A stretch of 33,657 nt of DNA from the IMG/VR virus record IMGVR_UViG_2939152649_000001; one strand, given 5' to 3'. Every line of letters begins with the position of its first letter. The stretch's first letter is position 1. This document shows, piece by piece, positions 4,029 to 32,960 of the stretch. The notes under the pieces were generated by a model, which worked only from the letters and a program-made list of their open reading frames with translations, had not been told where the DNA came from and searched no databases. The translations under genes were made by a program, and so were the position numbers. Source of the DNA: a virus. Taxonomy: Duplodnaviria > Heunggongvirae > Uroviricota > Caudoviricetes.

Positions 4029-4029
4029 A

Positions 4030-4781: not shown

Positions 4782-5030
4782 ATGAGCAACGATATTTCAA
4801 TTCGTGTACCAAAAGTGATGGCGACACCTGCAGAGTTCGCGGAATGGGAAGGCCGCTCTCGCGGTTCGGTATATCAAATGATTCATAATGGTAAACTCGC
4901 TAAGTTTTTGGAAAGAAAGGAAAAACCGAAAGACAGAGTATGTATACGTTACCTTGAGTACAAAAAGGAACAAGTCAGGAAAAACATGGGCCAATCCAAT
5001 TTCAACTTTAATGTCATCGTTGGTGACTAA
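4782..5030 (+). CDS. Apl/Cox-like small DNA-binding regulator (excisionase / early repressor)
   Basis: 82-aa first gene of the rightward early operon, the position of cox (P2) or apl (186); basic, HTH-like segment AEFAEWEGRSRGSVYQMIHNGKL. Confidence 0.6.
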   Translation: MSNDISIRVPKVMATPAEFAEWEGRSRGSVYQMIHNGKLAKFLERKEKPKDRVCIRYLEYKKEQVRKNMGQSNFNFNVIVGD

Positions 5031-5062
5031 GTTCAATTATGAGAACTTTCTAAGGTGGCAGC

Positions 5063-5572: not shown

Positions 5573-5579
5573 GGTGCTT

Positions 5580-5780
5580 ATGCTGACGAAAGAACCATCA
5601 TTTGCATCGCTGCTGGTAAAGCAAAGCCCGGCAATGCACTACGGTCACGGCTGGATCATGGGTGAGGATGGAAAACGCTGGCATCCGTGCCGTTCACAAG
5701 ATGAATTGCTGGCAGAACTATCTACGAAGAAACGGGGGAACAAATGGCTATTGAAGGCGCTGCGGCGACTGTTCCATTAA
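5580..5780 (+). CDS. Hypothetical early protein
   Basis: 66-aa ORF from the Met of MLTKEPSFASLL..., with GAGGTG ribosome-binding site 7 nt upstream; position corresponds to the fil/dhr/orf78-83 region of 186/P2. Confidence 0.45.
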   Translation: MLTKEPSFASLLVKQSPAMHYGHGWIMGEDGKRWHPCRSQDELLAELSTKKRGNKWLLKALRRLFH

Positions 5781-6085
5781 GCCCCGGTGAACGCCTGAAT
5801 GGACTTAATCACATTGCGGAGTTAAGGGCGAAAGTATTTGGCCTGAATATTGAGTCAGAGCTTGAGCGGTTTATTAAAGATATACGTGATCCACGGGATG
5901 TTAATTATGAACGAAATAAACGAGCACTGGCTGCTATATTCTTTATAGCAAAAATTCCAGCTGAACGTCATAGCATCAGCATTAATGAGCTGACCACTGA
6001 CGAAAAGCGGGAGTTGATTAAAGTAATGAATCATCTTCGTGCAGTGGTGAGCTTATTTCCCAGACGGCTAGCCATGCCGAATTAA
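5744..6085 (+). CDS. Hypothetical early protein
   Basis: 113-aa ORF in the early operon, overlapping the preceding ORF; no recognisable motif. Confidence 0.45.
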   Translation: MAIEGAAATVPLSPGERLNGLNHIAELRAKVFGLNIESELERFIKDIRDPRDVNYERNKRALAAIFFIAKIPAERHSISINELTTDEKRELIKVMNHLRAVVSLFPRRLAMPN

Positions 6086-6146
6086 CCAATTAATGAAATT
6101 CATGGCGTAAACCCGCCGGGCATTCCTTTATCTAAATTCAGGAGAA

Positions 6147-6386
6147 TTGATTATGCGTAATATTGAAACCCTCTCGACTAAAACCGGACCGGATGACGCA
6201 GGACTTAATATTTTACTGACAGAGGCTCGTCTGGAAGAACGTCGGGCAAGAGCTGAAGCAATGGCAGCTCGCCTTGATAGCCTTGCGTGCCATATCACAT
6301 CCCGCCAGCTAAACCACGTTGAAGCGGCTGAACTGCTGCGTGTGGCAGCTGAAGCAATCCAGAACGAAGCGCAGGAGATCCACTAA
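6147..6386 (+). CDS. Hypothetical early protein (small, alanine/arginine-rich helical)
   Basis: 79-aa ORF co-oriented in the early operon; stop overlaps the start of the next gene. Confidence 0.5.
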   Translation: MIMRNIETLSTKTGPDDAGLNILLTEARLEERRARAEAMAARLDSLACHITSRQLNHVEAAELLRVAAEAIQNEAQEIH

Positions 6387-6613
6387 TGGCTGATGCAATG
6401 GATCTCGTACAGCAGCGCGTTGAAGAAGAACGCCAGCGTCATATCCGTGCTGCCCGTGCCAAAACGCCGGGCGTGTCCCGCGTGCTTTGCATTGAGTGTG
6501 AAGCGCCAATTCCGCCAGCACGCCGCCGTGCCATTCCGGGTGTGCAGCTTTGCATTACCTGTCAGGAAATCGCAGAGCTGAAAGGCAAACATTACAACGG
6601 AGGTGCTGTATGA
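6386..6613 (+). CDS. TraR/DksA-family C4 zinc-finger protein
   Basis: 75-aa ORF with CIECEAPIP...(17 aa)...CITCQ (Cys-x2-Cys ... Cys-x2-Cys) at the C-terminus, as in P2-family early zinc-finger ORFs. Confidence 0.7.
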   Translation: MADAMDLVQQRVEEERQRHIRAARAKTPGVSRVLCIECEAPIPPARRRAIPGVQLCITCQEIAELKGKHYNGGAV

Positions 6614-7467
6614 GCACCATCCTGAAATGGGCGGGAAATAAAACCGCCATTATGTCCGAACTGAAAAAGCATCTTCCTGCTGGCCCGCGACTGGTTGAAC
6701 CTTTCGCGGGTTCCTGTGCAGTGATGATGGAGACGGAGTACCCCAGCTATCTTGTTGCGGATATTAATCCTGATTTAATCAACCTCTATAAAAAGGTTGC
6801 TGCTGATTGTGAATCGTTTATATCTCGCGCCAGAGTTTTATTTGAGATCGCAAACAGGGGGGTGGCTTATTACAACATAAGGCAGGAGTTTAATTACTCA
6901 ACTGAAATTACTGATTTCATGAAAGCGGTATATTTCCTGTATCTCAATCGTCACGGTTACCGTGGTTTATGTCGCTATAACAAGAGCGGGCATTTCAACA
7001 TTCCCTACGGTAATTATAAAAATCCGTATTTCCCTGAAAAAGAAATTCGCGCATTTGCAGAAAAAGCCCAGCGAGCAACGTTTATCTGCGCCAGCTTTGA
7101 TGAAACGCTGGCGATGTTGAAGGCGGGGGATGTGGTGTATTGCGATCCGCCGTATGACGGTACGTTTTCCGGCTATCACACTGATGGTTTCACTGAAGAT
7201 GACCAGTATCACCTGGCATCCGTTCTTGAACATCGGTCATCAGAAGGACATCCGGTCATTGTTTCTAACAGTGATACATCCCTGATCCGTTCGCTGTATC
7301 GCAATTTTACTCACCACTATATCAAGGTAAAACGCAGCATCGGTGTGGCAGCTGGCGAGGGTAAATCAGCAACAGAAATCATTGCTGTTTCCGGGCCGCG
7401 CTGCTGGGTGGGATTTGATTATTCGCGTGGCGTGGATAGTTCTGCCGTGTACGGAGTACGTGCATGA
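6610..7467 (+). CDS. dam: DNA adenine methyltransferase (Dam family, N6-adenine)
   Basis: N-terminal LKWAGNK and VEPFAGS (AdoMet binding), [16 protein letters not shown], and catalytic DPPY (VYCDPPYDG); ATG at 6610 overlaps the upstream stop (ATGA). Confidence 0.9.
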
Positions 7468-9878
7468 GCCATGCCGATATGAACAACTGCTGCGGCTTTA
7501 ACGAGGCTGCCGCAGCGTTCTCATGGAACAGCCCGAAAAAGGCCATTAACCCTTATCTGGACCCGGCGGAAGTTGCGCCGGTTTCTGCGCTTTCAAACCT
7601 GATCGCTCTGTACGCTGCCGATAACGAGCAGGAACACCTGCGCCGCGAGGCACTGAGTGATCAGGTCTGGGAGCGTTATTTCTTTAATGAATCCCGTGAT
7701 CCTGTCCAGCGCGAAATGGAGCAGGATAAGCTCATTAGTCGGGCAAAGCTGGCGCATGAGCAGCAGCGTTTTAATCCAGATATGGTCATTCTGGCGGACG
7801 TCAATGCCCAGCCTTCCCATATCAGCAAGCCGCTGATGCAACGTATTGAATACTTCAGCAGCTTGGGCAGGCCAAAGGCTTATTCCCGCTATTTGCGTGA
7901 GACGATTAAGCCATGTTTGGAGCGACTGGAGCATGTACGCGACAGCCAGCTATCTGCATCTTTTCGTTTTATGGCAAGCCATGTAGGGCTGGACGGCCTG
8001 CTGATTCTGCCTGAAATGAGTCAGGATCAGGTGAAACGCCTGTCTACTCTTGTCGCTGCGCATATGAGCATGTGTCTTGATGCCGCTTGTGGTGATTTGT
8101 ACGCCACCGATGATGTTAAGCCAGAAGAAATCCGCAAGACATGGGAAAAGGTGGCAGCAGAAACCCTGCGACTGGATGTTATCCCGCCTGCGTTTGAGCA
8201 ACTTCGTCGGAAAAGAAACCGCCGTAAACCCGTGCCCTATGAACTCATTCCGGGTTCGCTGGCGCGTATGTTGTGCGCCGATTGGTGGTACCGGAAATTA
8301 TGGAAGATGCGTTGCGAATGGCGGGAAGAGCAGTTGCGTGCTGTTTGCCTGGTCAGCAAAAAAGCATCTCCCTATGTCAGCTATGAAGCCGTGATGCATA
8401 AACGTGAGCAGCGCCGTAAGTCGCTGGAGTTTTTCCGTTCTCATGAACTGGTGAACGAAGACGGCGACACGCTGGACATGGAGGATGTGGTAAACGCCAG
8501 CAGCAGCAACCCGGCGCATCGCCGCAATGAGATGATGGCCTGTGTTAAAGGTCTGGAGCTTATCGCTGAAATGCGCAGTGACTGTGCCGTTTTCTACACT
8601 ATCACCTGTCCGTCGCGTTTCCATTCCACGCTCAATAACGGCAGACCAAACCCGACCTGGACAAACGCGACGGTAAGACAAAGCAGCGATTATCTGGTCG
8701 GCATGTTTGCTGCATTTCGTAAGGCTATGCACAAAGCCGGGTTGCGCTGGTATGGCGTGCGGGTGGCTGAACCGCATCATGACGGCACAGTTCACTGGCA
8801 CCTGTTGTGTTTCATGCGCAAAAAAGACCGCCGCGCCATTACTGCATTGTTGCGTAAGTTTGCCATCCGTGAAGACCGCGAGGAGCTGGGCAATAACACG
8901 GGGCCACGCTTTAAGTCTGAGCTGATAAACCCGCGCAAAGGTACGCCAACAAGCTACATCGCGAAATACATCAGTAAGAACATTGACGGGCGTGGTCTGG
9001 CTGGCGAGATCAGCAAGGAAACGGGTAAATCCCTGCGTGATAACGCTGAATACGTTAATGCCTGGGCGTCTCTGCATCGTGTTCAGCAATTCCGCTTCTT
9101 TGGCATTCCGGGGCGTCAGGCTTACCGTGAACTGCGATTGCTGGCTGGTCAGGCGGCAAGGCAACAGGGGGACAAAAAAGCAGGTGCGCCGGTACTGGAT
9201 AACCCGCGCCTTGATGCAATCCTGGCTGCTGCTGATGCTGGTTGTTTTGCCACCTACATCATGAAGCAGGGCGGCGTACTGGTTCCCCGCAAATATCACC
9301 TCATCAGAACTGCTTATGAAATCAACGAAGAGCCGACCGCCTATGGCGATCACGGTATTCGTATTTATGGCATCTGGTCACCCATTGCAGAGGGCAAGAT
9401 CTGCACTCATGCGGTGAAGTGGAAAATGGTTCGTAAGGCCGTTGACGTTCAGGAGGCGGCAGCCGACCAGGGCGCTTGCGCCCCTTGGACTCGTGGCAAT
9501 AACTGTCCCCTTGCTGAAAATTTGAACCAACAGGAGAAAGATAAATCAGCTGATGGGGACCCCAGAACGGACATTACCAGCATGGATGACAAGGAGTTGC
9601 ACGAATACCTGCACAGTATGAGCAAAAAAGAGCGCCGGGAACTGGCAGCAAGGTTACGCCTGGTGAAACCGAAACGGCGTAAAGACTACAAACAGCGAAT
9701 TACAGACCATCAGCGACTGCAGCTCGTGTATGAGCTGAAGTCCAGAGGATTTGATGGCAGCGAGAAAGAGGTCGATTTACTCCTTCGCGGAGGCAGTATT
9801 CCGTCAGGAGCAGGCCTGCGTATCTTCTATCGGAACCAGCGTTTGCAGGAAGATGATAAGTGGCGAAACCTGTATTAA
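7464..9878 (+). CDS. A: Replication initiation protein A (rolling-circle HUH endonuclease)
   Basis: 804-aa ORF with HUH motif (TVHWHLLCF) and active-site tyrosine region [12 protein letters not shown]; position after the early regulatory genes as in P2/186. Confidence 0.93.
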
Positions 9879-9970
9879 TTACGCGGGTTAACAATTCGTG
9901 CTCTTAATAATACCAGGCATATCAGGCTGATGAACGTAAAAAATCGTTTTACATCAGTAAGATTATTATA

Positions 9971-9990
9971 TACTGTAAATATAAACAGTG
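9971..9990. promoter_or_regulatory. LexA operator (SOS box) over the promoter of the tum/dinI module
   Basis: TACTGTAAATATAAACAGTG fits CTGT-N8-ACAG with an AT-rich centre; TTACAT at 9949..9954 is a possible -35 element about 40 bp upstream of the first ORF. Confidence 0.75.
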
Positions 9991-10031
9991 GTTATGCATA
10001 CAGCATTGCGTGTGGTGTCATAGGAGGAAAG

Positions 10032-10220
10032 ATGCAGGACTATTTTTTGGAGTCTTTGAAGCTCCAGCGCATTGATTTTTTTCTTAAGCTTGTAGCGGCT
10101 AGTGAGTGTAGTGATGAAGAGAAGGGGCTGGCTCTGCAGTGGGTTTCTGAATTGACTGATGAACTCATGGCAAAAATCAGAACCCACGAATACAACCGCT
10201 CAATGGATGTCATCAGCTGA
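10032..10220 (+). CDS. Small acidic protein at the tum locus (putative Tum-like antirepressor)
   Basis: 62-aa ORF starting MQDYFLESLK with AGGAGG ribosome-binding site, directly downstream of the LexA box and coupled to the DinI-like gene; function inferred from position only. Confidence 0.5.
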   Translation: MQDYFLESLKLQRIDFFLKLVAASECSDEEKGLALQWVSELTDELMAKIRTHEYNRSMDVIS

Positions 10221-10230
10221 GGTGACTTTT

Positions 10231-10464
10231 ATGCGCATTGAAATAATGATCGATAAAGAGCAGAAGATTAGCCAGTCTACCCTGGACGCCCTTGAATCCG
10301 AGCTTTACCGCAATCTGCGCCCCCTGTATCCCAAAACGGTAATTCGCATTCGCAAAGGTAGCTCTAACGGTGTGGAACTAACCGGACTGCAACTGGACGA
10401 AGAAAGAAAACAAGTGATGAAAATTATGCAGAAGGTGTGGGAAGACGACAGCTGGCTGCATTAA
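10231..10464 (+). CDS. DinI-family protein
   Basis: 77-aa ORF MRIEIMIDKEQKISQSTLDALESELYRNLRPLYPKTVIRIRKGSSNGVELTGL...KIMQKVWEDDSW aligns along its length with E. coli DinI as recalled; GAGGTG ribosome-binding site overlaps the upstream stop. Confidence 0.75.
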   Translation: MRIEIMIDKEQKISQSTLDALESELYRNLRPLYPKTVIRIRKGSSNGVELTGLQLDEERKQVMKIMQKVWEDDSWLH

Positions 10465-10598
10465 GAAACGTTGCTGGCGTCTGAACTTGCTTCTGGCGTC
10501 AGCAAGGTTGAACAACGAGCCCTTGCGAGGCGTTAGCTCTGTAGTGCATGTCTATGCCGCATGAGATCGCATGATCGTTTGAGGATCGTTTTTGCTAA

Positions 10599-10624
10599 GG
10601 CCCGCCAGAACTGGCGGGCTTTTG
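10599..10624 (+). terminator. Rho-independent terminator after the tum/dinI operon
   Basis: GGCCCGCCAG-AA-CTGGCGGGCT hairpin (perfect 9-10 bp stem, 2-nt loop) followed by TTT. Confidence 0.6.
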
Positions 10625-10668
10625 CGTAGATCATGCAGGTGCATGAAAACCACTACATAAAGCGGGCA

Positions 10669-10687
10669 GGCGTGGCGGGGATACGAG
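10669..10687. other. Candidate cos (cohesive end) site
   Basis: GGCGTGGCGGGGATACGAG shares its first 13 nt with the P2/186 cos 19-mers as recalled (GGCG-A/T-GGCGGGGAAAGCA-); lies between replication/tum genes and portal gene Q as in P2-family genomes. Confidence 0.45.
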
Positions 10688-10757
10688 CGCGCGCAACGGG
10701 GTAAAATGGCCAAAATCCGGCACAGCCTCTGGCCCGCTGGCGGCCTCATTTAGTGGA

Positions 10758-10767
10758 GGGGGGGGGG
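10758..10767. repeat. G10 homopolymeric tract
   Basis: Ten consecutive G between the candidate cos site and the 3' end of Q. Confidence 0.9.
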
Positions 10768-10849
10768 AGATTCAGGGCAAAAAGAAACGCCCCGCAGAAT
10801 GCTGCTGAGGCGTTGTGAGAGTTGGTCGGGTTTTGATGTTATGAGTATG

Positions 10850-11893
10850 TCAGCCTCGTTTGCCCTTAAGCCCTAAGTCATAAGCTTCAAAACGGATCAC
10901 CTCTTCATTCAGCCAGTCATTCAGCTCCTGCAGTCGCTTTTGCAGTGGCATCAGTTCATTGCGGACGAAGACACGGCTCGCTTTTTCCACATCACCAAAG
11001 CCGCCAGTGTTGTTGGGAATGATGCCCATCATTTGCGGCGGTACGCGGTGAGCCGCCATCATGTCATCGCGGCTGACGTTCTTGATGTTCAGAAATTCAT
11101 CCTTCGCCGCGACTTCCGACAACGGGATAATCTGAATGCCATCTTTTTTGCCGTTAGGCGAGTACATAAACAGGTTGCGGAAGTTGCCCGGCCCTTTAGC
11201 ACTTTTCATTGCCTTGCGGATGTTGTTCACATCCTCCTGGTTCTGCGCGGCGTCGGTCATGTACATGATGAAGCCTGCGTGGCTGCCGTTAATGTAATAC
11301 TTGCGGCGGAACAGCGTGGCGGATTCGTTGAGCAGAGCTGACGGAATGGCAGAAAGGTAACCCGGCAGACCATAAATCTCCTGGTTGATATCCGGCTCCA
11401 TCAGGTGGAAGACGTTACCTTTTGTGAACTGATACGGCTGTGTCGTCAGGCTGTATTGCACAAACCAGTATGTTTCAAGGTCAAGCCCGCGCCGGGTGTA
11501 TTTTGCCAGTGCAGGCTCCAGCGAAATAACTTCACCAAAGCGATTCGTGCGCTTCTCCAGATAGGCGTTACCAAAAACCAGATAGTCCTGCACAAAACGG
11601 GTAAATGCCTGCTGGCTGAGAAGGCGATGTGGAATATAGGTACTGCTGATGATGTCACGTTTAACACTGATCGGGGAGCTGTGGTGCACGGCGGCGCGGA
11701 AGGTTCGTGCCAGTCCGTCAAAACTGACGGGCGGCTCATACCAGCGATCCATCTGTACGCATTCCACATAGTCCAGCAGTTCGCGGCGGTCCAGTACAGG
11801 AATGGGATCACCAAAGCTGAAAGCCTCAGCAACGGGTTTTTTAGTTTCTTCTGCAGTTACGGTTTCGCCTGGCGCGATATGTTCTTTCATCAA
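10850..11893 (-). CDS. Q: Portal protein
   Basis: 347-aa ORF next to cos, transcribed toward it, same size and position as P2 gpQ; overlaps the terminase gene by 4 nt. Confidence 0.93.
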   Translation of the reverse strand: MMKEHIAPGETVTAEETKKPVAEAFSFGDPIPVLDRRELLDYVECVQMDRWYEPPVSFDGLARTFRAAVHHSSPISVKRDIISSTYIPHRLLSQQAFTRFVQDYLVFGNAYLEKRTNRFGEVISLEPALAKYTRRGLDLETYWFVQYSLTTQPYQFTKGNVFHLMEPDINQEIYGLPGYLSAIPSALLNESATLFRRKYYINGSHAGFIMYMTDAAQNQEDVNNIRKAMKSAKGPGNFRNLFMYSPNGKKDGIQIIPLSEVAAKDEFLNIKNVSRDDMMAAHRVPPQMMGIIPNNTGGFGDVEKASRVFVRNELMPLQKRLQELNDWLNEEVIRFEAYDLGLKGKRG

Positions 11894-18215: not shown

Positions 18216-18640
18216 ACCGGTTGCTGCTGGTTGTGCTGACGTTATTACTGGCGGCGCTGGGCTGGCAGACGTGGCGGCTGGCTGATGCCAGCCAGACCAT
18301 CAGCACGCAGGCAGACGAGCTGCAGAGCAAAAGCCAGGCACTGGCAAAGAGCAATAGCCAGCTTATCAGCCTGTCCATTCTGACTGAAACCAATAACCGG
18401 GAGCAGGCGCGGCTCTATGCCGAAGCAGAACAGACCAGCACTCTGCTGAGACAACGACAACACCGGATCGAGGAACTGAAACGTGAGAACGAGGATTTAC
18501 GCCGCTGGGCTGATACTCCTTTGCCTGCTGACATTATCCGGCTGCGGAAACGTCCGGCACTCACCGGAGGTATGGCTTACCGTCAGTGGTTGTCCGCGAG
18601 TGACGCCGTGTCGGCTGGATCAGACAACGCCGCGCACTAA
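18212..18640 (+). CDS. lysB: LysB, Rz-like inner-membrane spanin
   Basis: 142-aa ORF with N-terminal transmembrane segment (LLLVVLTLLLAALGW) followed by a coiled-coil-prone region. Confidence 0.7.
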   Translation: MNRLLLVVLTLLLAALGWQTWRLADASQTISTQADELQSKSQALAKSNSQLISLSILTETNNREQARLYAEAEQTSTLLRQRQHRIEELKRENEDLRRWADTPLPADIIRLRKRPALTGGMAYRQWLSASDAVSAGSDNAAH

Positions 18641-18773
18641 CGGTGATCTGAACGCGTTGCTGGATGAAACGGAGGCCGCCTGGGCGGTCTGTGCAGACAA
18701 AGTGGACATGATTATTGCGTGTCAGGAGCGAAATAGTGAACAAACCACAATCCCTGCGCCACGCCCTCAATAA
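18483..18773 (+). CDS. lysC: LysC, Rz1-like outer-membrane lipoprotein spanin, nested in the +1 frame of lysB
   Basis: Signal peptide with lipobox (LLCLLTLSGC); ORF begins inside lysB in another frame and extends past its stop; 96 aa as recalled for P2 LysC. Confidence 0.65.
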   Translation: MRTRIYAAGLILLCLLTLSGCGNVRHSPEVWLTVSGCPRVTPCRLDQTTPRTNGDLNALLDETEAAWAVCADKVDMIIACQERNSEQTTIPAPRPQ

Positions 18774-19167
18774 AGCGGTGCCTTATGTCCGCAATAACCC
18801 GGACAAACTGCATCTGTTTGTGGATAACGGTTCGCTGGTTGCCACGGGGGCCAGCTCCATGTCGTGGGAGTACCGTTACACACTGAACGCGGTGATTGAG
18901 GATTTCAGCGGCGACCAGAATCTGCTGATGGCCCCGGTTTTGCTGTGGCTGAGGGATAACCAGCCCGATGCCATCAATAACCCGGCGTTACGGGAAAAGC
19001 TATTCACCTTTGAGGTGGATATTCTGCGCAACGATGTCTGTGATATCAGCCTGAACCTGCAACTGACGGAACGTGTGCTGGTCAGCACTGACGGCAGTGT
19101 GTCGAGCGTTGAAGCTATAGCGGAACCTGATGCACCTGAAGAAATGTGGACGGTGAAACGTGGCTGA
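18736..19167 (+). CDS. R: Tail completion protein R
   Basis: Start placed at the in-frame GTG at 18736 preceded by AGGAGC; translation VNKPQSLRHALNKAVPYVRNNPDKLHLFVDNGS... resembles P2 gpR as recalled. Confidence 0.8.
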   Translation: MNKPQSLRHALNKAVPYVRNNPDKLHLFVDNGSLVATGASSMSWEYRYTLNAVIEDFSGDQNLLMAPVLLWLRDNQPDAINNPALREKLFTFEVDILRNDVCDISLNLQLTERVLVSTDGSVSSVEAIAEPDAPEEMWTVKRG

Positions 19168-19606
19168 ACTGCAGAAGGTGGACGACTGGCTGAGTGCCTT
19201 GCTGGCGAATCTGGAACCAGCCACGAGAAGCCGCATGATGCGCCAGCTGGCGCAGGAACTTCGCCGGACACAGCAGCAGAATATCAGGATGCAGCGCAAC
19301 CCTGACGGCAGCAGCTATGAACCGCGACGGGTAACAGCACGCAGTAAAAAAGGCCGTATCAAACGTCAGATGTTTGCAAAGCTGCGCACCACAAAATACC
19401 TGAAAACTGCCGCCAGCACCGACTCTGCCAGCGTGCAGTTTGAAGGCAAAGTGCAGCGCATTGCCCGCGTTCACCATTACGGCCTGCGAGATCGCGTCAG
19501 TCGTAAGGGACCGGAGGTGCGTTACGCAGAGCGTCGCCTTCTGGGTGTAAATGATGATGTTGAGGCAATGACTCGCGACATGATTCTGCAATGGCTGGCG
19601 GGGTGA
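19160..19606 (+). CDS. S: Tail completion protein S
   Basis: 148-aa ORF with GTG start overlapping the R stop; P2 gpS position and size. Confidence 0.8.
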   Translation: MAELQKVDDWLSALLANLEPATRSRMMRQLAQELRRTQQQNIRMQRNPDGSSYEPRRVTARSKKGRIKRQMFAKLRTTKYLKTAASTDSASVQFEGKVQRIARVHHYGLRDRVSRKGPEVRYAERRLLGVNDDVEAMTRDMILQWLAG

Positions 19607-19610
19607 TCTT

Positions 19611-19628
19611 TGTATCAGCACTGATACA
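19611..19628. promoter_or_regulatory. Late-promoter activator site upstream of V
   Basis: Perfect dyad TGTATCAG-CA-CTGATACA (TGT-N12-ACA), about 47-64 bp upstream of the V start codon. Confidence 0.6.
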
Positions 19629-19674
19629 AGTTGCAGCACTGCCGCCTTTCTTCCCCTGATGGCAACCTTTCCCT

Positions 19675-20253
19675 ATGAACGCACAATTAACCGAAATCAT
19701 GCGCCTTATCACCAACCTGATCCGCACAGGGGTAGTCACCGAAGTGGACAGGGAAAACTGGCTTTGCCGGGTGAAAACGGGCGAGCTTGAAACCAACTGG
19801 ATCAGCTGGCTGACGCTGCGTGCCGGGAATGCCCGTACATGGTGGCGACCATCGGAAGGTGAGCAGGTGGTGCTGCTGAGTCTGGGCGGCAATCTGGAAA
19901 CCGCCTTTGCGCTGCCCGCTGTCTATTCGAATCAGTTCGCACCACCGTCGACGTCGGCGGACGCCTGCGTGACAGAACATCCTGACGGTGGCTGGTTTGA
20001 ATACGAACCCGCCACCGGGCGCTGGTATGTCAGGGGCATCAAATCAATGGTCATTGAGGCTGCTGACAACATCACCATGAAAACCAGTGAGTTTGTACTG
20101 GAGGCTGACCGCACGCGCATTAACAGCGAAGTGGTGATCAATGGTGGCGTTACCCAGGGCGGCGGAGCGATGAGTTCTAACGGGATCGTGGTTGATGCGC
20201 ATCAGCATACTGGCGTCCTGAAAGGCGGCGATACAACCGGAGGCCCGGTATGA
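19675..20253 (+). CDS. V: Baseplate spike/assembly protein V
   Basis: 192-aa ORF with glycine-rich C-terminus, first gene of the baseplate operon. Confidence 0.9.
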   Translation: MNAQLTEIMRLITNLIRTGVVTEVDRENWLCRVKTGELETNWISWLTLRAGNARTWWRPSEGEQVVLLSLGGNLETAFALPAVYSNQFAPPSTSADACVTEHPDGGWFEYEPATGRWYVRGIKSMVIEAADNITMKTSEFVLEADRTRINSEVVINGGVTQGGGAMSSNGIVVDAHQHTGVLKGGDTTGGPV

Positions 20254-20609
20254 CGCTTTATAGCGGGATGAACAATACCAGCGGCAAAGTCATTACTGAT
20301 ATTGATCATCTGCGCCAGTCGGTGCGGGACATTCTGCTGACACCGCAGGGTAGCCGTATTGCCCGCCGGGAATATGGTTCCCTCCTGTCGGTTTTAATAG
20401 ATCAGCCACAAAATCCGGCATTACGCCTGCAGGTCATGTCGGCAGTGTATGTGGCGCTGAGTCGCTGGGAGCCACGGCTGACGCTGGATTCCATCACCAT
20501 CAACAGCAACTTTGACGGTTCTATGGTGGTGGAGCTGACCGGGCGGCGGAATAACGGTGTGCCTGTGTCCCTTTCCGTATCAACAGGAGCAGAGAATGGC
20601 AGTGATTGA
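20250..20609 (+). CDS. W: Baseplate wedge protein W (gp25-like)
   Basis: 119-aa ORF overlapping the V stop; P2 gpW size and position. Confidence 0.9.
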   Translation: MTLYSGMNNTSGKVITDIDHLRQSVRDILLTPQGSRIARREYGSLLSVLIDQPQNPALRLQVMSAVYVALSRWEPRLTLDSITINSNFDGSMVVELTGRRNNGVPVSLSVSTGAENGSD

Positions 20610-21504
20610 CCTTTCGCAGTTGCCTGCACCGCAGATTGTGGATATGCCGGACTTTGAGACGCTGCTTGCCGAACGCAAGGCAGAATTTGTGGCGCTTCAT
20701 CCGAAAGATGAGCAGGAAGCCGTGATCCGAACGTTGGAACTGGAATCTGAACCCGTCACTAAATTGTTGCAGGAGAACGCTTACCGTGAGTTGCTTCTGC
20801 GCCAGCGCATTAACGAAGCCGCGCAGGCGGTGATGGTGGCTTACGCGATGGGCGGCGATCTTGACCAGCTCGCAGCCAACTACAACGTGACACGCCTGAC
20901 GGTGACGCCTGCTGATGATGATGCTGTGCCGCCCGTTGCAGCTGTGATGGAAAGCGATGAAGCGTTACGCCTGCGTGTGCCTGCAGCCTTTGAAGGGCTT
21001 TCTGTTGCGGGGCCAACTGCAGCTTATGAATTTCATGCCCGAAGCGCCGACGGTAGGGTGGCGGATGCCAGTGCAACCAGCCCGGCACCTGCAGAGGTGG
21101 TGCTGACTGTCCTTAGCCGCGAAGGCGATGGAACTGCAGAAAAAGACCTGCTGGACGTGGTGGAAAAAGCTCTGAACAGTGAGAACGTCCGCCCGGTGGC
21201 TGACCGTCTGACGGTTCGCAGCGCAGAAATCATCCCGTATCGCGTGGAAGCCACCATTTTTCTCTATCCGGGACCGGAAGCAGAGCCGGTAATGGCAGCG
21301 GCAAAAGCCAGCCTGCAGAAGTACATCGCCAGTCAGACGCGTCTTGGTCGGGATATTCGCCGTAGCGCCATCTTTGCCGCCCTGCATGTTGAGGGTGTGC
21401 AGCGTGTGGAGCTGGCTTCTCCTCTGGCGGATGTGGTCCTGAACAAAACACAGGCGGCATCATGTACGCAGTGGAGCGTAACCAACGGAGGAACGGATGA
21501 ATAG
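20596..21504 (+). CDS. J: Baseplate assembly protein J
   Basis: 302-aa ORF from the Met of MAVIDLSQLPAP..., start overlapping the end of W. Confidence 0.9.
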   Translation: MAVIDLSQLPAPQIVDMPDFETLLAERKAEFVALHPKDEQEAVIRTLELESEPVTKLLQENAYRELLLRQRINEAAQAVMVAYAMGGDLDQLAANYNVTRLTVTPADDDAVPPVAAVMESDEALRLRVPAAFEGLSVAGPTAAYEFHARSADGRVADASATSPAPAEVVLTVLSREGDGTAEKDLLDVVEKALNSENVRPVADRLTVRSAEIIPYRVEATIFLYPGPEAEPVMAAAKASLQKYIASQTRLGRDIRRSAIFAALHVEGVQRVELASPLADVVLNKTQAASCTQWSVTNGGTDE

Positions 21505-22102
21505 TCTGCTGCCACCGGGTTCAACTTCACTGGAGCGCCGACTGGCGCAAACCTGTAGCGGGATTTCTGATCTGCAGGTGCCGCTGCGTGACTTGTGGAA
21601 TCCGGCTACCTGTCCGGTCAGCTTCCTGCCTTATCTCGCCTGGGCGTTCTCTGTGGATCGCTGGGACGAGGGCTGGACAGAAAGCGTCAAACGCCAGGTA
21701 GTGAAGGATGCTTTTTATATTCATCAGCATAAAGGAACCACCAGTGCCGTGCGGCGGGTGGTGGAACCGTTCGGATTCCTGATCCGCATTATTGAGTGGT
21801 GGCAGACCGGAGAGGCTCCGGGCACGTTTCGCCTGGATATCGGCGTGCAGGACCAGGGCATCACTGAAGATACCTATCTGGAACTTGAGCGACTGATAAG
21901 CGATGCCAAACCATGTAGCCGCCACATGATCGGCATGTCCATCAATCTGCAGACCAGCGGCCCGCATTGGGTGGGAGCCGCCAGCTATCTTGGCGAAGAA
22001 ATCACGATCTATCCGTATATCAACGAAACAATTATTTCTGGCGGCACCGCGCATGAAGGCGGGGCGGTCCATGTTATTGACACAATGAGAGTGAATCCAT
22101 GA
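21497..22102 (+). CDS. I: Baseplate/tail-fibre attachment protein I
   Basis: 201-aa ORF between J and H, overlapping both. Confidence 0.85.
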   Translation: MNSLLPPGSTSLERRLAQTCSGISDLQVPLRDLWNPATCPVSFLPYLAWAFSVDRWDEGWTESVKRQVVKDAFYIHQHKGTTSAVRRVVEPFGFLIRIIEWWQTGEAPGTFRLDIGVQDQGITEDTYLELERLISDAKPCSRHMIGMSINLQTSGPHWVGAASYLGEEITIYPYINETIISGGTAHEGGAVHVIDTMRVNP

Positions 22103-23496
22103 GCACAAAATTTTATACCCTGCTGACGGATATTGGCGCGGCGAAACTTGCCAGCGCCGCCGCGCTCGGTGTGCCGCTAAAAATTACCCATATGGCGGTG
22201 GGCGATGGTGGCGGAACATTGCCGACGCCGGACGCAAAGCAGAGTGCACTGGTAAATGAGAAACGTCGGGCTGCGCTGAATATGCTCTATATCGACCCAC
22301 AGAACAGCAGCCAGATTATTGCTGAACAGGTGATCCCTGAAAATGAGGGTGGTTGGTGGATACGTGAAGTGGGTCTGTTTGATGAGTCCGGGGCATTGAT
22401 TGCCGTAGGCAACTGCCCGGAAAGCTATAAGCCGCAACTGGCTGAAGGCAGCGGGCGCACCCAGACCGTGCGCATGGTGCTGATTACCAGCAGCACGGAC
22501 AATATCACCCTGAAAATCGACCCTGCCGTCGTGCTGGCAACCCGCAAGTATGTGGATGACAAGGTACTGGAGCTGAAGGTGTTCGTGGATGATAAGATGG
22601 CAAAACATCTTGCCGCACCGGACCCGCATTCACAGTATGCACCCAAAGAAAGCCCGACATTGACCGGAACACCCAAAGCGCCAACGCCAGCGGAGGGGAA
22701 TAACACCACGCAGATTGCGACCACCGCGTTTGTTCAGGCGGCACTGATGGCCCTTATTAATGGTGCGCCAGCCACACTGGATACGCTGAAAGAAATTGCC
22801 GCTGCCATTAATAATGACCCGAAATTCAGTACCACCATTAACAATGCGCTGGCACTGAAAGCGTCGCTGTCAAGTCCGGCACTCACCGGAACGCCAACAG
22901 CCCCCACTGCCGCACAGTCGGTTAACAATACACAGATTGCCACCACGGCTTTTGTGAAATCGGCAATTGCGGCAATGGTGGGGTCTGCACCTGCTGCACT
23001 GGATACACTGAACGAACTGGCTGCGGCGCTGGGGAATGACCCGAACTTTGCCACGACAATGCTTAATGCGCTGGCAGGTAAACAACCGCTGGACAATACG
23101 CTGACTAATTTGAGTGGAAAGGATGTAGCTGGTCTTCTCGCATACCTTGGTTTGGGAGAGGGAGCAAAATTAGGCGCAGCGGTGTGTGTGACCGGCTCTA
23201 CAGGCTATATGACTATCCCGGCAATGGTCGCCGGGAAAGAACGGGTGATCATATTGCAGTGGTTTGGTGCTGCTACAACTGATTATGTGACACCAGTAAC
23301 TGCGAATTTCCCTATTGCATTCCCAAATGAGTGCATGATTCCGTTATTTAGTGATGTATCAACTGGGGCAGTTGATTTGAGTTCTACAGCCGCATATAGC
23401 TTAGCGGTGGGCCGATCATACTATACGACGGTAACAAGAACTCAGATTACATGTGCTGGCTACGGTGGCTTTAGAGTTTTCGCGATTGGATGGTGA
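22099..23496 (+). CDS. H: Tail fibre protein H; C-terminal ~115 codons lie inside the invertible cassette
   Basis: 465-aa ORF with conserved N-terminal baseplate-binding part ([24 protein letters not shown]...), tandem 74-aa fibre repeats and a variable C-terminus. Confidence 0.9.
22651..23094 (+). repeat. Tandem duplication (2 x 222 bp, encoding 74 aa each) inside H
   Basis: [59 protein letters not shown]... is followed by [59 protein letters not shown]... Confidence 0.7.
23136..23159. promoter_or_regulatory. hix/gix-like recombination site (left) inside H
   Basis: TCTCGCATACC-TT-GGTTTGGGAGA: imperfect dyad around a central TT, resembling crossover sites of Hin/Gin/Cin/Pin invertases (AAACC-NN-GGTTT core); inverted copy at 24682..24705. 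Confidence 0.6.
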
Positions 23497-23501
23497 TTAA
23501 T

Positions 23502-23921
23502 ATGTTTTATTCTGCAAAAGAAAATGCGTTCTACGCTGATGAGCTAAAAAGTATTTATGAAAATGCAGGTAGCTGGCCTGACGATGCCGTTGAAGTAGAC
23601 TATTCCGTATTCGTTGAGTTTGCCGGAGAATCACCTAACGGAAAATTACGCGCTCCTAATTCTGATGGTTTACCTGAATGGATAGATATTCCCGAACCAA
23701 CTGAAGAGGAAATTATTGCGTTGGCAGAAGCCGAAAAATCGCGACTGCGTGCTTCAGCTGACTCTGAAATAGAATGGCGGCAGGACGCCGTTGATGCGGG
23801 GATCGCGACGGAAGAAGAAACTGTTTCATTAGCCGAATGGAAAAAATACCGGGTGCTGCTGATGCGAGTTGATACAGCAGACCCGGACTGGCCTACTCCT
23901 CCGGCGACTCAGGCCAGTTGA
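23502..23921 (+). CDS. Tail fibre assembly protein (chaperone) for the expressed fibre variant
   Basis: [28 protein letters not shown]... with C-terminal DWPTPP motif; immediately follows H (alternative in-frame ATG at 23490). Confidence 0.8.
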
Positions 23922-24324
23922 TATCTGGTGCGCTGGATATGTCCACAGATTCCAGCGCATCGAGATAATCCAGCCACTCGTTATACTGGGCCTTCTCGTC
24001 GTCTGTAAGTCGCCCCAGCGCAGCTTTACCCGGCCACTGCTTGCTGTTTATATACTCATTAGCCTGATCGATACGATACTGTTTTTCAGCTTCAGCTGCT
24101 GCGATTTCCTCCTCATGGCTTAAAGGTGGAATGTCTACCCATGCCGGCATTCCATCCTCAGTAGCTCCACGAGTTTTACCCTCTGGTGGCATCCCCGAAT
24201 ATTCAGTGAATGTCTCATCTGAGACGGCTATGAGATCGTCAGGCCAGTTTCTACTCGCTTCATAAACATCTCTGAGCTCATCAGGGTAGAAAGCGTTATT
24301 TAATGCTGAATAAAAATAAGCCAT
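23893..24324 (-). CDS. Tail fibre assembly protein, alternative copy in inverted orientation
   Basis: [30 protein letters not shown]... is a paralogue of the plus-strand chaperone; the two converge and overlap by 29 bp, as U and U' do in Mu-type G segments. Confidence 0.8.
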
Positions 24325-24327
24325 TTA

Positions 24328-24692
24328 TTAATACCCCACAGCAAAATAGTTAAACCCGCCAGCGCCGATGGATGATTCAGCGTTGGTTCCTGTCTGATAA
24401 GCGCGTAGCTGGAAATTAGTTCTCGTAAAATTCTGGGCGGTTAACGCAAAACCTTGACCTGTACCCCCAACACTCTGGTCTGTTGCAACAACACATAGCG
24501 CCCTGGTTGGAAACGCAATCGGGAATGATACTGTTTCTGGGGATGTTTTCGTTTTGGCTATTGCCCATTGAAGAATTAACCCGCCTGGCAGGTATTGATA
24601 CCCCGAATCGGCTCGCTGATTACCAAATGAAGACATGTCCGGAATCTGTCCGGAACCAGTGCCAACATTTTTTTTGCCGCATCTCCTAAACC
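24328..24692 (-). other. Silent alternative tail-fibre C-terminal cassette, promoterless, minus strand
   Basis: Minus-strand translation ...LILQWAIAKTKTSPETVSFPIAFPTRAL...GGFNYFAVGY parallels the C-terminus of H (...[28 protein letters not shown]...[10 protein letters not shown]); the six-frame ORF 24328..24765 extends spuriously upstream of the recombination site. Confidence 0.7.
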
Positions 24693-24705
24693 AACGTTTA
24701 TAAAA
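24682..24705. promoter_or_regulatory. hix/gix-like recombination site (right), inverted relative to the site in H
   Basis: Reverse complement TTTTATAAACG-TT-GGTTTAGGAGA matches the left site in the core (TT-GGTTT-GGAGA); the two delimit a ~1.55 kb invertible segment. Confidence 0.6.
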
Positions 24706-24746
24706 ATGCAGAGATTTTTCCTGCAAGCGGACAAATACCGTTATTT

Positions 24747-24764
24747 TGTGTGAATAACGGTACA
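24747..24764. promoter_or_regulatory. Candidate late-promoter activator site upstream of FI
   Basis: TGTGTGAATAACGGTACA (TGT-N12-ACA), near-identical in its ends to the O-promoter site, about 77-94 bp upstream of the FI start. Confidence 0.5.
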
Positions 24765-24840
24765 ACTGCGCTTAGCTGTTTGTCAGGCACAATCACTTCA
24801 ACATAGGGCGAAGCCTAATCCAATCAGGAGGTTCGCCACT

Positions 24841-26013
24841 ATGGCTCAGGATTACCACCACGGGGTGCGCGTTGTTGAAGTTAACGAAGGCACCCGATCC
24901 ATTACCACGGTGAGCACCGCCATCGTGGGTATGGTCTGCACGGGCGATGATGCCGATGCAAAAATGTTTCCTCTTAATAAACCCGTGCTGATCACTGATG
25001 TGCTGACTGCCAGCGGTAAAGCGGGTGAGTCCGGCACGCTGGCCCGTTCGCTGGATGCCATCGCTGACCAGGCAAAACCCGTGACCGTTGTTGTGCGTGT
25101 GCCGCAGGGTGAAACGGAAGAAGAAACCACGACCAATATCATCGGCGCAGTGACTGCTGAAGGTAAAAAAACAGGCATGAAAGCCCTGTTATCTGCCCAG
25201 ACACAGCTCGGCGTTAAACCGCGCATTCTCGGCGTGCCAGGTCACGATAACAAAGCCGTTGCTACTGAGTTGCTGAGTGTGGCGCAAAGCCTGCGTGGGT
25301 TTGCTTACCTGTCAGCGTATGGCTGCAAGACGGTGCAGGAGGCGATCACTTACCGTGAAAACTTCAGCCAGCGCGAAGGAATGCTGATCTGGCCCGACTT
25401 TACTGGCTGGGACACGGTGCTGAATGCCGAAGCAACGGCATATGCCACCGCCCGTGCGCTTGGTCTGCGTGCCAAAATTGATGAGCAGACCGGATGGCAC
25501 AAAAGCCTGTCCAACGTGGGCGTGAACGGTGTCACCGGAGTTTCTGCAGATGTGTTCTGGGATCTGCAGGACCCGGCAACCGATGCAGGTCTGCTGAACC
25601 AGAACGACGTCACCACGCTTGTGCGTAAAGACGGTTTCCGCTTCTGGGGTTCCCGCTGCCTGAGTGATGACCCGCTCTTTGCCTTCGAAAACTACACCCG
25701 CACGGCGCAGGTGCTGACGGACACAATGGCAGAAGCGCACATGTGGGCAGTGGACAAACCGCTGAACCCGTCGCTGGCCCGCGACATTATCGAAGGTATC
25801 CGCGCCAAAATGCGCAGCCTGGTCAGTCAGGGGTATCTCATTGGTGGTGATTGCTGGCTGGATGAGTCGGTGAACGATAAAGACACGCTGAAAGCCGGGA
25901 AGCTCACCATTGACTACGACTACACGCCAGTGCCGCCACTTGAAAACCTGATGCTGCGTCAGCGCATCACCGATCAGTACCTGGTGAATTTTGCCAGCCA
26001 GGTCAGCGCGTAA
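24841..26013 (+). CDS. FI: Contractile tail sheath protein
   Basis: 390-aa ORF with strong similarity to P2 gpFI as recalled ([19 protein letters not shown]..., ...[21 protein letters not shown]..., ...[13 protein letters not shown]...). Confidence 0.93.
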
Positions 26014-26022
26014 GGGGACAAC

Positions 26023-26538
26023 ATGGCTTTACCACGCAAATTAAAACATCTGAACCTGTTTAACGACGGGAACAACTGGCAGGGGATCGTTGAGTCGCTG
26101 ACACTGCCGAAATTCACCCGCAAATATGAGAAGTATCGCGGCGGCGGAATGCCGGGTGCAGTGGATGTGGATCTGGGACTTGATGACAGTGCTCTGGACA
26201 CAGAATTTTCCATTGGTGGTACTGAACTGCTGCTGTTTAAGCAGATGGGCAAAGCCACTGTGGATGGCATCCAGTTGCGCTTTACCGGCTCTATCCAGCG
26301 TGACGATACCGGAGAAGTGCAGGCCGTAGAGCTTGTAGTGCGTGGGCGTCACAAAGAAGTGGATTCCGGTGAGTGGAAGACGGGCGAAAGCAACACCACC
26401 AAAGTGACCAGCACTAACAGCTACGCGAAGCTGACAATCAATGGTGAGGTGCTCTATGAAGTGGACCTCATCAACATGGTGGAAATCGTGGACGGTGTGG
26501 ACCTGATGGAAGCACACCGTAACGCCCTCGGCCTCTGA
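26023..26538 (+). CDS. FII: Tail tube protein
   Basis: 171-aa ORF immediately after the sheath gene; P2 gpFII position and size. Confidence 0.9.
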   Translation: MALPRKLKHLNLFNDGNNWQGIVESLTLPKFTRKYEKYRGGGMPGAVDVDLGLDDSALDTEFSIGGTELLLFKQMGKATVDGIQLRFTGSIQRDDTGEVQAVELVVRGRHKEVDSGEWKTGESNTTKVTSTNSYAKLTINGEVLYEVDLINMVEIVDGVDLMEAHRNALGL

Positions 26539-26592
26539 TGTATCTGAACGGCGCGGAATACCGCGCCAGAACCTAATTTACAGGACAGCAAA

Positions 26593-26895
26593 ATGAGCGA
26601 TAAGCAGACTGAAAAGACCATTCAACTGGATACCCCTATCAAGCGTGGTAAAACAGAAATCACCGAAATTGTGCTGCGCAAACCGCATTCCGGTGCGCTG
26701 CGCGGTACACGCCTGCAGGCGATTATGGATATGGATGTGAACGCGATGATGACCGTGATCCCCCGCATCTCCAGCCCGGCACTGACTGCACAGGAAATTG
26801 CAGAGATGGACCCGGCAGATCTCACTGCCATGTCGGTTGAGGTTGTCACTTTTTTGTTGAAGAAGTCGGTGCTTGCCGGTTTACCGACAGCCTGA
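26593..26895 (+). CDS. E: Tail assembly chaperone E
   Basis: 100-aa ORF upstream of the tape-measure gene containing a T TTT TTG slippery heptamer. Confidence 0.85.
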   Translation: MSDKQTEKTIQLDTPIKRGKTEITEIVLRKPHSGALRGTRLQAIMDMDVNAMMTVIPRISSPALTAQEIAEMDPADLTAMSVEVVTFLLKKSVLAGLPTA

Positions 26896-27029
26896 CGGTT
26901 GACGATCTGGTGGCAGATATCGCCACCATTTTTCACTGGCCGCCATCCGTTACTGACGTTATGCCGCTGACCGAAGTGCTGGAATGGCGGTATAAAGCGA
27001 TTCAGAGAAGCGGGGCCAACGATGAGTGA
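26593..27029 (+). CDS. Tail assembly chaperone E+E' (extended product by programmed -1 frameshift at 26850..26856)
   Basis: T-TTT-TTG lies in the zero frame (codons ACT TTT TTG); the -1 frame stays open for ~57 codons to a TGA at 27027..27029 overlapping the T start, the conserved chaperone arrangement. Confidence 0.7.
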
Positions 27030-32593: not shown

Positions 32594-32642
32594 TATTTGG
32601 TGGAGCTGGCGGGAGTTGAACCCGCGTCCGAAATTCCTACAT
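32594..32642. repeat. 49-bp att core at the 3' end of ssrA (attR), direct repeat of 2837..2885
   Basis: Exact identity to the left copy. Confidence 0.9.
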
Positions 32643-32960
32643 CCTCGGTACTACATGCTTAGTCAGTCTTTACATTCGCTTGCCAGCTGCGGACGGACAC
32701 GCCACTAACAAACTAGCCTGATTAAGTTTTAACGCTTCAACCCCAGGCAGGACTTCCACGCGATCTCTTTTGGGTTTGACCTCTCTTGATCCCCGTCCTA
32801 AGAGCGGAGGCTAGGGAGAGAGGGCTCTAAGCAGGTTATTAAGCTGCTAAAGCGTAGTTTTCGTCGTTTGCGACTATTTTTTGCGGCTTTTTACGAGGCC
32901 AACCGCCCCTCGGCATGCACCTTGGGTTTCGCAAATCCCGTCGAATCCAGAATCAGCCCC
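32598..32960 (-). ncRNA. ssrA: tmRNA (transfer-messenger RNA), 363 nt
   Basis: Reverse complement reads GGGGCTGATTCTGGATTCGACGGGATTTGCGAAACCC ... GCAAACGACGAAAACTACGCTTTAGCAGCTTAA (ANDENYALAA tag) ... GGGTTCAACTCCCGCCAGCTCCACCA, matching E. coli tmRNA as recalled. Confidence 0.97.

Follow-up and report, generated by a model that had tools for sequence, protein, structure and literature searches.

The region between the tail-fibre gene H and the tail sheath gene FI of this P2-like Escherichia coli prophage is very probably a genuine invertible tail-fibre cassette of the Din family, which no longer has its recombinase and is fixed in a single orientation. The anatomy of the cassette, the homology of its crossover sites, the deletion of the invertase gene, the single orientation and a frameshift in the silent copy are direct observations, made in the window (the whole stretch of 33,657 nucleotides that was analysed) and in related genomes.

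In the cassette, H and the chaperone gene tfa on the plus strand are followed on the minus strand by tfa' and a silent H end, in an arrangement delimited by two 26-bp sites (Table 1). Pfam matches place both sets, each comprising a fibre end and a chaperone, in opposite orientation, in line with the first-pass annotation, which had recognized the architecture of the Mu G and e14 P segments. The two chaperones share 41% identity and the silent and expressed H ends 31%, and the convergent tfa and tfa' genes overlap by 29 nt at their 3′ ends. Public assemblies contain the exact Tfa protein in 353 indexed blocks. In regard to the surroundings, PGAP annotation of identical or near-identical records together with Pfam gives a late-gene order of the P2 type (V-W-J-I-H-G ... 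FI-FII-E-T-U-D-ogr), in which the stretch separating the chaperone gene from FI varies in content. In P2-like phages the Z/fun hotspot, often with an invertase, is located between the G position and FI, and fibre swapping is described there (bioRxiv 10.1101/2024.10.15.618418); the position of the cassette between Tfa (P2 gene G) and FI agrees with the earlier proposal that it occupies this hotspot. PGAP also calls a 132-aa "gp53-like domain-containing protein" (24328-24726) that runs across the crossover site; this is a by-product of ORF calling and not a stand-alone gene.

Table 1. Features of the tail-fibre cassette and its right flank, in window coordinates.
Feature	Position	Strand	Evidence or remark
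H	22099-23496	+	Pfam Phage_tail_fib N-terminus and Gp53-like_C
H constant part, up to crossover core (350 codons)	22099-23146	+	Pfam Phage_tail_fib, 1.3e-64
Left site TTCTCGCATACC-TT-GGTTTGGGAGAG	23135-23160, core TT 23147-23148	+	inside H; 22/26 identical to e14 pixL
Sv, expressed variable H C-terminus, receptor-binding end	23149-23496	+	Pfam Gp53-like_C; in frame with H
Tfa, tail-fibre assembly chaperone for the expressed end	23490-23921	+	Pfam Caudo_TAP, 1e-33
Tfa', paralogous chaperone for the silent end	23893-24324	-	Pfam Caudo_TAP, 1.9e-38
Sv', silent alternative H C-terminus	24328 to about 24692	-	Pfam Gp53-like_C, 1.1e-18
T8 homopolymer (A8 on coding strand), frameshift site in Sv'	24668-24675		comparison with relatives
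Right site ATCTCCTAAACC-AA-CGTTTATAAAAA	24681-24706, core AA 24693-24694	+	23/26 identical to e14 pixR
Deletion scar …ATGCAGAG/ATTTTTCC…	24711-24716, junction 24713/24714		alignment to L004, L013, L021, L022
TGT-N12-ACA dyad upstream of FI, which we take to be the P2 Ogr-type late-promoter element	24747-24764	+	read from sequence
FI, tail sheath gene, right neighbour of the cassette	24841-26013	+	Pfam Phage_sheath_1, Phage_sheath_1C, Gp18_domIII_N

The inverted hix/gix-type sites noticed at the first pass held up in a formal alignment with e14 pix (22/26 and 23/26) and with gix, and they have the half-site core of Mu gix. When the 33.6 kb were scanned with the Din-family crossover-site pattern TCNNAWACSNNSGTWTNNGA, allowing at most one mismatch, the left and the right sites were the only matches in the window, with 0.02 expected by chance, and none of 100 shuffled sequences produced two matches. 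The right site is inverted relative to the left one and has the complementary core. The coordinates first given for the pair, 23136-23159 and 24682-24705, were one base short at each end and otherwise right. The left site is in frame in H (codons ...LLAYL/GLGE...), with the core between L350 and G351, and the H genes of L007, L013 and L021 remain similar exactly as far as this site, as expected from its proposed location inside H at the boundary between the constant and the variable part. The distance of about 135 bp from the right site to FI was likewise reproduced, the end of the site being 135 bp from the FI start codon. The possibility of the two sites being a chance inverted repeat was ruled out by the pix/gix alignment, the pattern statistics and the exact core-to-core exchange seen in relatives. 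As a counterpoint to a frozen cassette, both sites look competent and are close to those of working relatives, with a single position of the right outer half-site being different, where T replaces the C of all invertase-bearing relatives (TTTTT- vs TTTTC-ATAAACG).

The absence of a serine recombinase from the window, claimed already at the first pass, was upheld by a tblastn search with five Din invertases, which returned short matches only (best E = 0.012), and by a blastn-short search for a DNA remnant of the gene, which found nothing beyond 12-17-mers. In NCTC11023, which matches the window at 100%, the annotation shows no invertase in the 50 kb to the left or to the right. Aligned with its invertase-bearing relatives, the window shows a single clean gap of 630 bp with a 3-nt microhomology (G-AT), its ends lying 48 bp ahead of the invertase ATG and 15 bp past the invertase stop. 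The deletion took the invertase gene together with its promoter, and retained the right site and the FI late-promoter element; the FI-side flank with the TGT-N12-ACA dyad is conserved in the invertase-bearing relatives. The resulting junction is common to only six of 5,426 complete genomes. The Fis enhancer is located inside the invertase gene in Hin, Gin, Cin and Pin and, because this applies to all characterised members, the internal enhancer was probably lost along with the gene. Fis sites are so degenerate that another enhancer might escape a computational search. The enhancer of Hin-type invertases, 65 bp in length, is needed in cis (PMC3798978).

The same cassette, 98.3-99.9% identical and inserted in the same P2-like backbone, is present in other E. 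coli genomes together with a 188-aa Pin-like invertase. The invertase gene of these relatives lies between the right site and FI, and its product belongs to the resolvase family and is 86% identical to PinE. Invertase-bearing copies are found in the orientation of the window (L021, L022) as well as flipped (L013, L014, L026, L027, L030), and on a different P2-like backbone the cassette is flipped and accompanied by the invertase in L002 and L003. The exchange point in the flipped copies coincides with the core dinucleotide exactly in every case, and in the flipped L002, L003 and L025 the left outer half-site is followed by the other inner half-site. L013, L026, L027 and L030 express Sv' as the terminal part of a 471-aa H. 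The flipped L025, which has T8 and 1-bp deletions in its invertase, may be either a further decayed copy or a noisy assembly, and was set aside as evidence.

While both orientations are found among invertase-bearing copies, only one was seen among those devoid of the invertase. All five complete genomes with the cassette on the invertase-less backbone have the orientation of the window. The same is true for 24 of the 24 contigs read with the exact H protein, all of them without the invertase, although such a look-up finds the unflipped form only, by design. The absence of the flipped form rests on searches for its junction, found in none of the 5,426 complete genomes, and for three predicted flipped H proteins, absent among about 15 billion proteins. 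Assemblies present the majority orientation only, so flipping at low frequency would be invisible in them; inversion is presumably lacking in living cells. A scan of metagenomes for the 38-nt deletion junction gave no match, and hence no orientation information from that source.

The silent end itself has decayed. In the window, as was missed at the first pass, Sv' is out of frame with the right site due to a homopolymer that is 1 nt shorter: all intact invertase-bearing copies examined (L002, L003, L013, L014, L021, L022, L026, L027, L029, L030) have T9, which is in frame, while the tract of invertase-less copies is T8, T9 (L017) or T7 (L019). As T8 in place of T9 puts the silent end out of frame, flipping would truncate H, and simulated inversion of the segment indeed gives an H of 388 aa. 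With T8 in its silent end, the window does not hold two alternative sets that each yield a complete fibre gene. As another counterpoint to a frozen cassette, the T9 variant L017 represents an intact silent copy in part of the lineage. Two amino-acid changes of Sv' that looked specific to the window, K47 and K49, are not taken as a sign of relaxed selection, since the same residues occur in the expressed copies P0121, P0123 and P0126.

In regard to the events leading to such a structure, the ancestor would have encoded a Pin-like serine invertase between the right site and FI. DNA exchange by this enzyme at the 2-bp core of each 26-bp site would have given the constant part of H one of two ends, Sv with Tfa as its chaperone or Sv' with Tfa'. 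The invertase gene would then have been lost in an illegitimate 630-bp deletion at a 3-nt microhomology, together with its promoter and presumably the Fis-dependent enhancer, both sites and the FI late promoter being spared. From that point on, H-Sv would have been the sole fibre made by the phage, and the silent Sv', no longer under selection, would have gained homopolymer frameshifts, with T9 becoming T8 here and T7 elsewhere; the right outer half-site would have undergone its C-to-T change. The first-pass annotation had considered the switch to be either frozen or dependent on an invertase acting in trans. We favour the frozen state because of the 630-bp scar, the single orientation on invertase-less copies and the frameshifted silent copy, and leave a small probability for the dependence in trans.

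According to that second option, the switch would be orphan but live, with a Pin-like invertase from another prophage in the same chromosome flipping the cassette and host range thus being controlled in trans. Din invertases cross-complement one another, and the Fels-2 invertase Fin is said (Kutsukake, in 2006) to act in trans on hix. The crossover sites hardly differ from those of invertase-bearing relatives, the in-frame variant L017 exists, and programmed inversions without a nearby recombinase gene are known in general (PMC9881135). The search for pin/hin/gin homologues elsewhere in the genome, suggested at the first pass, was made by comparison of a chimeric query (segment plus invertase gene) with the segment alone, with loci counted as places, and revealed one to four extra pin-like loci in each of five host chromosomes, but none within 50 kb in NCTC11023. 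We nevertheless regard this option as unlikely, as the enhancer-bearing gene is deleted, flipped invertase-less copies appear in no assembly or protein collection whereas invertase-bearing copies show both orientations, and the flipped H would be truncated in the window, so inversion would give no host-range switch. In an extended form, which we consider very unlikely, co-resident Pin-like invertases would flip the orphan cassette at low frequency without a cis enhancer, and slippage between T7, T8 and T9 would form a second level of control, itself reversible, on whether a functional fibre results from flipping. If this were so, trans activity at the crossover sites might explain why the window and L007 hold unrelated cassettes on one invertase-less junction.

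Two further explanations concern single elements of the structure. Homopolymer indels are a common error of long reads, and the several 1-bp deletions of L025 may be assembly noise, so T8 could be taken for an assembly error in a silent copy that is otherwise intact, with the invertase deletion as the sole lesion. Against this, T8 is the same in five independent complete genomes and is also present in L016, a Logan contig assembled from public sequencing runs (5 samples), and the assemblies do resolve the tract, since T9 (17 samples) or T7 is read in other contigs of this lineage; such an error is therefore highly improbable. Alternatively, the arrangement could be primary, in that the backbone never had an invertase and acquired the two-headed cassette by recombination. 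L007, the sixth genome with the identical junction, has a completely different cassette, and cassettes therefore do move onto the invertase-less backbone. However, both flanks of the junction align with invertase-bearing relatives, one clean 630-bp gap with microhomology is the signature of a deletion, and the retained right site is useless without a recombinase, which leaves a primary arrangement scarcely credible.

Taken as a frozen cassette, the segment has its closest counterparts among well-characterized switches. The P segment of e14, a cryptic prophage of E. coli K-12, shares with it the succession of constant part, Sv, tfa, inverted tfa' and inverted Sv', the 29-nt overlap of the convergent tfa genes, sites with 22 and 23 of 26 positions identical, and PinE as the 86% identical counterpart of the relatives' invertase. 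Unlike the window, which lacks an invertase and was seen in one orientation, e14 has kept pinE beside the right site and undergoes flipping in culture (PMC4272514). Among P2-like prophages, invertible tail-fibre segments such as that of EPEC E2348/69 and those of the Z/fun hotspot with an invertase have the phage family and the H/G-FI position in common with the window (PMC4272514; bioRxiv 10.1101/2024.10.15.618418). Their mechanism is the same as in the invertase-bearing relatives L004, L013, L021, L022, L026, L027 and L030, while the window differs by the 630-bp invertase deletion and the frameshifted silent copy. The Mu G segment with Gin and the P1 C segment with Cin resemble the window in architecture and in the layout of the 26-bp sites, with AAACC-NN-GGTTT around a 2-bp core, and Gin is 75-80% identical to the invertases of the relatives. 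They differ in having other fibre domains, a larger segment (3 kb in Mu) and the invertase present, and the Mu core is TC/GA compared with TT/AA in the window. P2 itself has one H, one chaperone and no switching. Fixed-fibre P2-like phages with this constitution, for example Klebsiella phage 4LV2017, are now functionally equivalent to the window, which differs in keeping a silent second gene set and both crossover sites.

The cassette is thus a frozen and decaying member of a well-known system, an ordinary relic rather than a working host-range switch, and its importance beyond annotation is little. It does provide a clear and datable example of how a host-range switch decays after loss of the recombinase, with a microhomology deletion first and homopolymer frameshifts in the unexpressed copy afterwards. 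For host-range prediction in this prophage family, the H-Sv/Tfa pair alone should be counted. Flipping in trans, if true, would be relevant to cross-talk among prophages; the data speak against it. A different deletion inactivating the inversion system on the same backbone was found in other E. coli genomes (the L008 class), where tfa' is truncated, the whole of Sv' and the right site have disappeared, most of the invertase gene is missing, and a 108-nt HTH pseudogene fragment remains.

The gene layout described in the first-pass annotation, namely the tail-fibre gene H and its chaperone followed by an inverted second chaperone and an inverted alternative H end, was recovered in full by Pfam assignments. 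The two chaperones share 41% identity and the two fibre ends 31%, and a consensus scan of the minus strand ahead of the silent end found no promoter-like site, in agreement with the description of this end as promoterless. The chaperone genes converge and their 3′ ends overlap by 29 nt (23893-23921); the same overlap is present in e14 (tfaP/tfaE) and in the related locus L004 and is thus conserved among such cassettes. A 94-nt direct repeat inside the constant part of H (22650-22743 and 22872-22965, 70% identical, 222 nt apart) stems from a fibre shaft motif (...TGTPxAPT...) that was duplicated within the gene.

Features of the tail-fibre cassette and the right neighbour of the prophage
Feature	Position	Strand	Remarks
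H, tail fibre	22099-23496	+	Pfam: Phage_tail_fib N-terminus, Gp53-like_C end
Left crossover site	23135-23160		TTCTCGCATACC-TT-GGTTTGGGAGAG, 26 bp
Tfa, chaperone	23490-23921	+	Pfam: Caudo_TAP
Tfa′, second chaperone	23893-24324	-	Pfam: Caudo_TAP
Silent fibre end	from 24328	-	Pfam: second Gp53-like_C
Right crossover site	24681-24706		ATCTCCTAAACC-AA-CGTTTATAAAAA, 26 bp
FI, tail sheath	start 24841
ssrA, tmRNA gene	32598-32960	-	right neighbour of prophage

The crossover sites lie in inverted relative orientation and have complementary cores. A degenerate crossover-site pattern matched the window twice, at exactly these sites (0.02 matches expected; none of 100 shuffles gave two). Alignment with crossover sites taken from reference records showed 22 and 23 of 26 positions in common with the e14 pix sites, as well as the AAACC-NN-GGTTT layout of the Mu gix sites, so that the proposed hix/gix-type assignment withstands the comparison on which it had been staked. 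The left core falls in frame between H codons 350 and 351, and similarity to other H alleles ends at this site. One position of the right outer half-site is T in the window and C in every invertase-bearing relative and in e14, while T is also found there in one Mu gix half-site.

In regard to the working of the cassette, many public assemblies encode the exact Tfa protein, and relatives were found with the same P2-like backbone, a cassette 98.3-99.9% identical, and, in the space from the right site to FI, an additional gene for a resolvase-family protein of 188 aa. Invertase-bearing copies on this backbone stand either in the window's orientation (L021, L022) or flipped, with a 471-aa H ending in the otherwise silent variable part (L013, L014, L026, L027, L030); on another P2-like backbone, the cassette is flipped and accompanied by a 197-aa invertase (L002, L003). 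The relatives' invertases are 85-87% identical to PinE of e14 and 75-80% to Gin. All flipped copies show the outer half-site on the H side fused, precisely at the core dinucleotide, to the other inner half-site, which is the product expected of serine-invertase strand exchange. The invertase, both orientations and the core-exact exchange in relatives show the cassette to be a genuine Din-family invertible segment, as the suggested likeness to the Mu G, P1 C and e14 P segments implied. Inversion of such segments in P2-like prophages was demonstrated experimentally in EPEC (PMC4272514), and an invertase at this P2 hotspot was noted in a survey (bioRxiv 10.1101/2024.10.15.618418). The 1.5-kb cassette is not confined to P2-like phages, as copies 99.2-99.9% identical lie in two other settings. 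In L024 (GCA_052874175.1) it stands behind another baseplate module and a fibre of 228 aa and runs directly up to a tyrosine integrase, with neither right site nor invertase; in L029 (GCA_052258885.1) it adjoins PAAR, DUF4123 and VgrG (type VI secretion) genes and carries a resolvase of 193 aa that shares only 67% identity with the P2 type.

The reported absence of a serine recombinase from the window was borne out: tblastn searches with Gin, PinE and three invertases of the P2 type as queries gave only short matches (E >= 0.012), and a blastn-short search of its DNA for an invertase remnant returned only 12-17-mers. In alignment with L004, L013, L021 and L022, the window is short of exactly 630 bp; the missing stretch begins 48 bp ahead of the invertase start codon and ends 15 bp beyond the stop. 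G-AT is common to both breakpoints of the junction (...ATGCAGAG/ATTTTTCC..., at 24713/24714), and the gap bears the signature of an illegitimate deletion at microhomology; it is not that of site-specific recombination, as 19 nt separate the left breakpoint from the core. The right crossover site was left intact. A TGT-N12-ACA dyad (24747-24764), 33 bp right of the scar and ~80-90 bp before the start codon of FI, was also kept and is conserved in invertase-bearing relatives; we take it, by resemblance, to be the Ogr-dependent late-promoter element of P2, so FI expression is presumably unaffected. In gin, cin and pin, the enhancer sits inside the invertase gene, and by homology the deletion would have removed the Fis-dependent enhancer together with the invertase gene while the right site stayed. 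In all characterised Din systems this enhancer, located within the invertase gene ~100 bp from a crossover site, is required in cis (PMC3798978). The deletion junction was found in only 6 of 5,426 complete E. coli genomes, five of them with the window's cassette. The sixth, EcE.CRE.COL (L007, NZ_CP191804.1, 2036-3910), combines the identical junction and the same right outer half-site with an unrelated cassette (H of 519 aa, chaperones of 200 and 145 aa, silent end in frame), so cassettes or flanks were swapped at crossover-site boundaries after invertase loss.

The homopolymer in the silent fibre end consists of nine T (T9) in L002, L003 and the intact invertase-bearing L013, L014, L021, L022, L026, L027, L029 and L030, a tally leaving out L004, which has a different cassette. 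Among invertase-less prophages that are otherwise near-identical, it is T8, a frameshift, in the window (24668-24675), L015, L016 (a contig from Logan assemblies of public sequencing runs) and L023, T7 in L019, and T9 in L017, which was seen in 17 samples; T8 also occurs in L024 and in the flipped L025 with a damaged invertase. As all three lengths exist within one invertase-less lineage, the tract appears to have been drifting since invertase loss, and the deletion would be older than the frameshifts. PGAP calls a 132-aa ORF (24328-24726, minus strand; "gp53-like domain-containing protein", WP_165843458.1) that starts with TTG in the FI upstream region and runs across the right crossover site; without the T8 frameshift there would be no such ORF, and it is in all likelihood an artefact of annotation. 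In the invertase-less L028 (GCA_045618965.1, 2111-3507), the expressed H itself is split into ORFs of 285 and 180 aa, which suggests further prophage decay or an assembly error.

The first-pass annotation had proposed that the switch is either frozen or dependent on an invertase acting in trans. All five complete genomes with both the deletion junction and the window's cassette have it in the window's orientation, and the invertase is absent from all 24 contigs read with the exact 465-aa H. When the flipped junction was simulated for the invertase-less backbone, it matched none of the 5,426 genomes over >68% of its length. The H predicted after flipping would measure 471 aa (T9), 388 aa (T8) or 373 aa (T7), and none of the three occurs among ~15 billion proteins, a collection that does contain flipped H of invertase-bearing relatives (cluster of protein P0002). 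The single orientation favours the frozen state. Candidates for the pin/hin/gin homologues sought elsewhere in the genome do exist, at one to four places per host: counted as places matched by a chimeric query (segment plus invertase gene) minus those matched by the segment alone, extra pin-like loci number four in Ecol_224, three in CH468, two each in MS6192 and MS6193, and one in NCTC11023. Since Din invertases cross-complement, rare inversion by a Pin-like invertase from elsewhere in the host chromosome is conceivable. However, the 50 kb on either side of the prophage in NCTC11023 contain none of these loci, inversion in trans would have to proceed without a nearby enhancer, and it left no trace in the comparative data. 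In the window it would yield a truncated fibre, as simulated inversion with T8 keeps only 358 residues of correct H sequence. We therefore regard such inversion as quite improbable. The cassette is very probably a frozen relic of a known system, made by the 630-bp deletion and with its unused half now frameshifted; the original observation is confirmed, and its interpretation is both supported and sharpened.

The cassette once worked as do the invertible segments found in other P2-like prophages and those of e14 (P), Mu (G) and P1 (C). It has kept both crossover sites, one of them in frame within H, and its place in the P2 late operon; what it lacks is an invertase next to it, a second fibre reading frame that is complete and, among its invertase-less copies, the occurrence of both orientations. 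It is best filed as a degenerate family member, functionally equal to a fixed-fibre P2-like phage. In other E. coli P2-like prophages (L008 and many others), the system was lost by a different deletion that left a 108-nt fragment of the invertase HTH, and these separate deletions indicate that decay of the switch is recurrent.

The window is 100% identical to E. coli NCTC11023 (NZ_LS483297.1) over 1-11000, starting at 1154822 of that genome, and over 18599-26996 (locus L018). It holds a complete P2-like prophage with integrase, CI, CII, replication gene, portal, terminase, capsid, lysis, baseplate, H, tail genes, D and ogr. The left end (1-2674) adjoins an IS30 copy, an IS3 transposase fragment, a second transposase fragment and a truncated integrase arm-binding pseudogene, which look like debris of an older ssrA-associated island. 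A prophage at ybjL in MS6192 pairs the same tail module with a different early region, so that the invertase-less tail module is common to mosaic prophages at different attachment sites.
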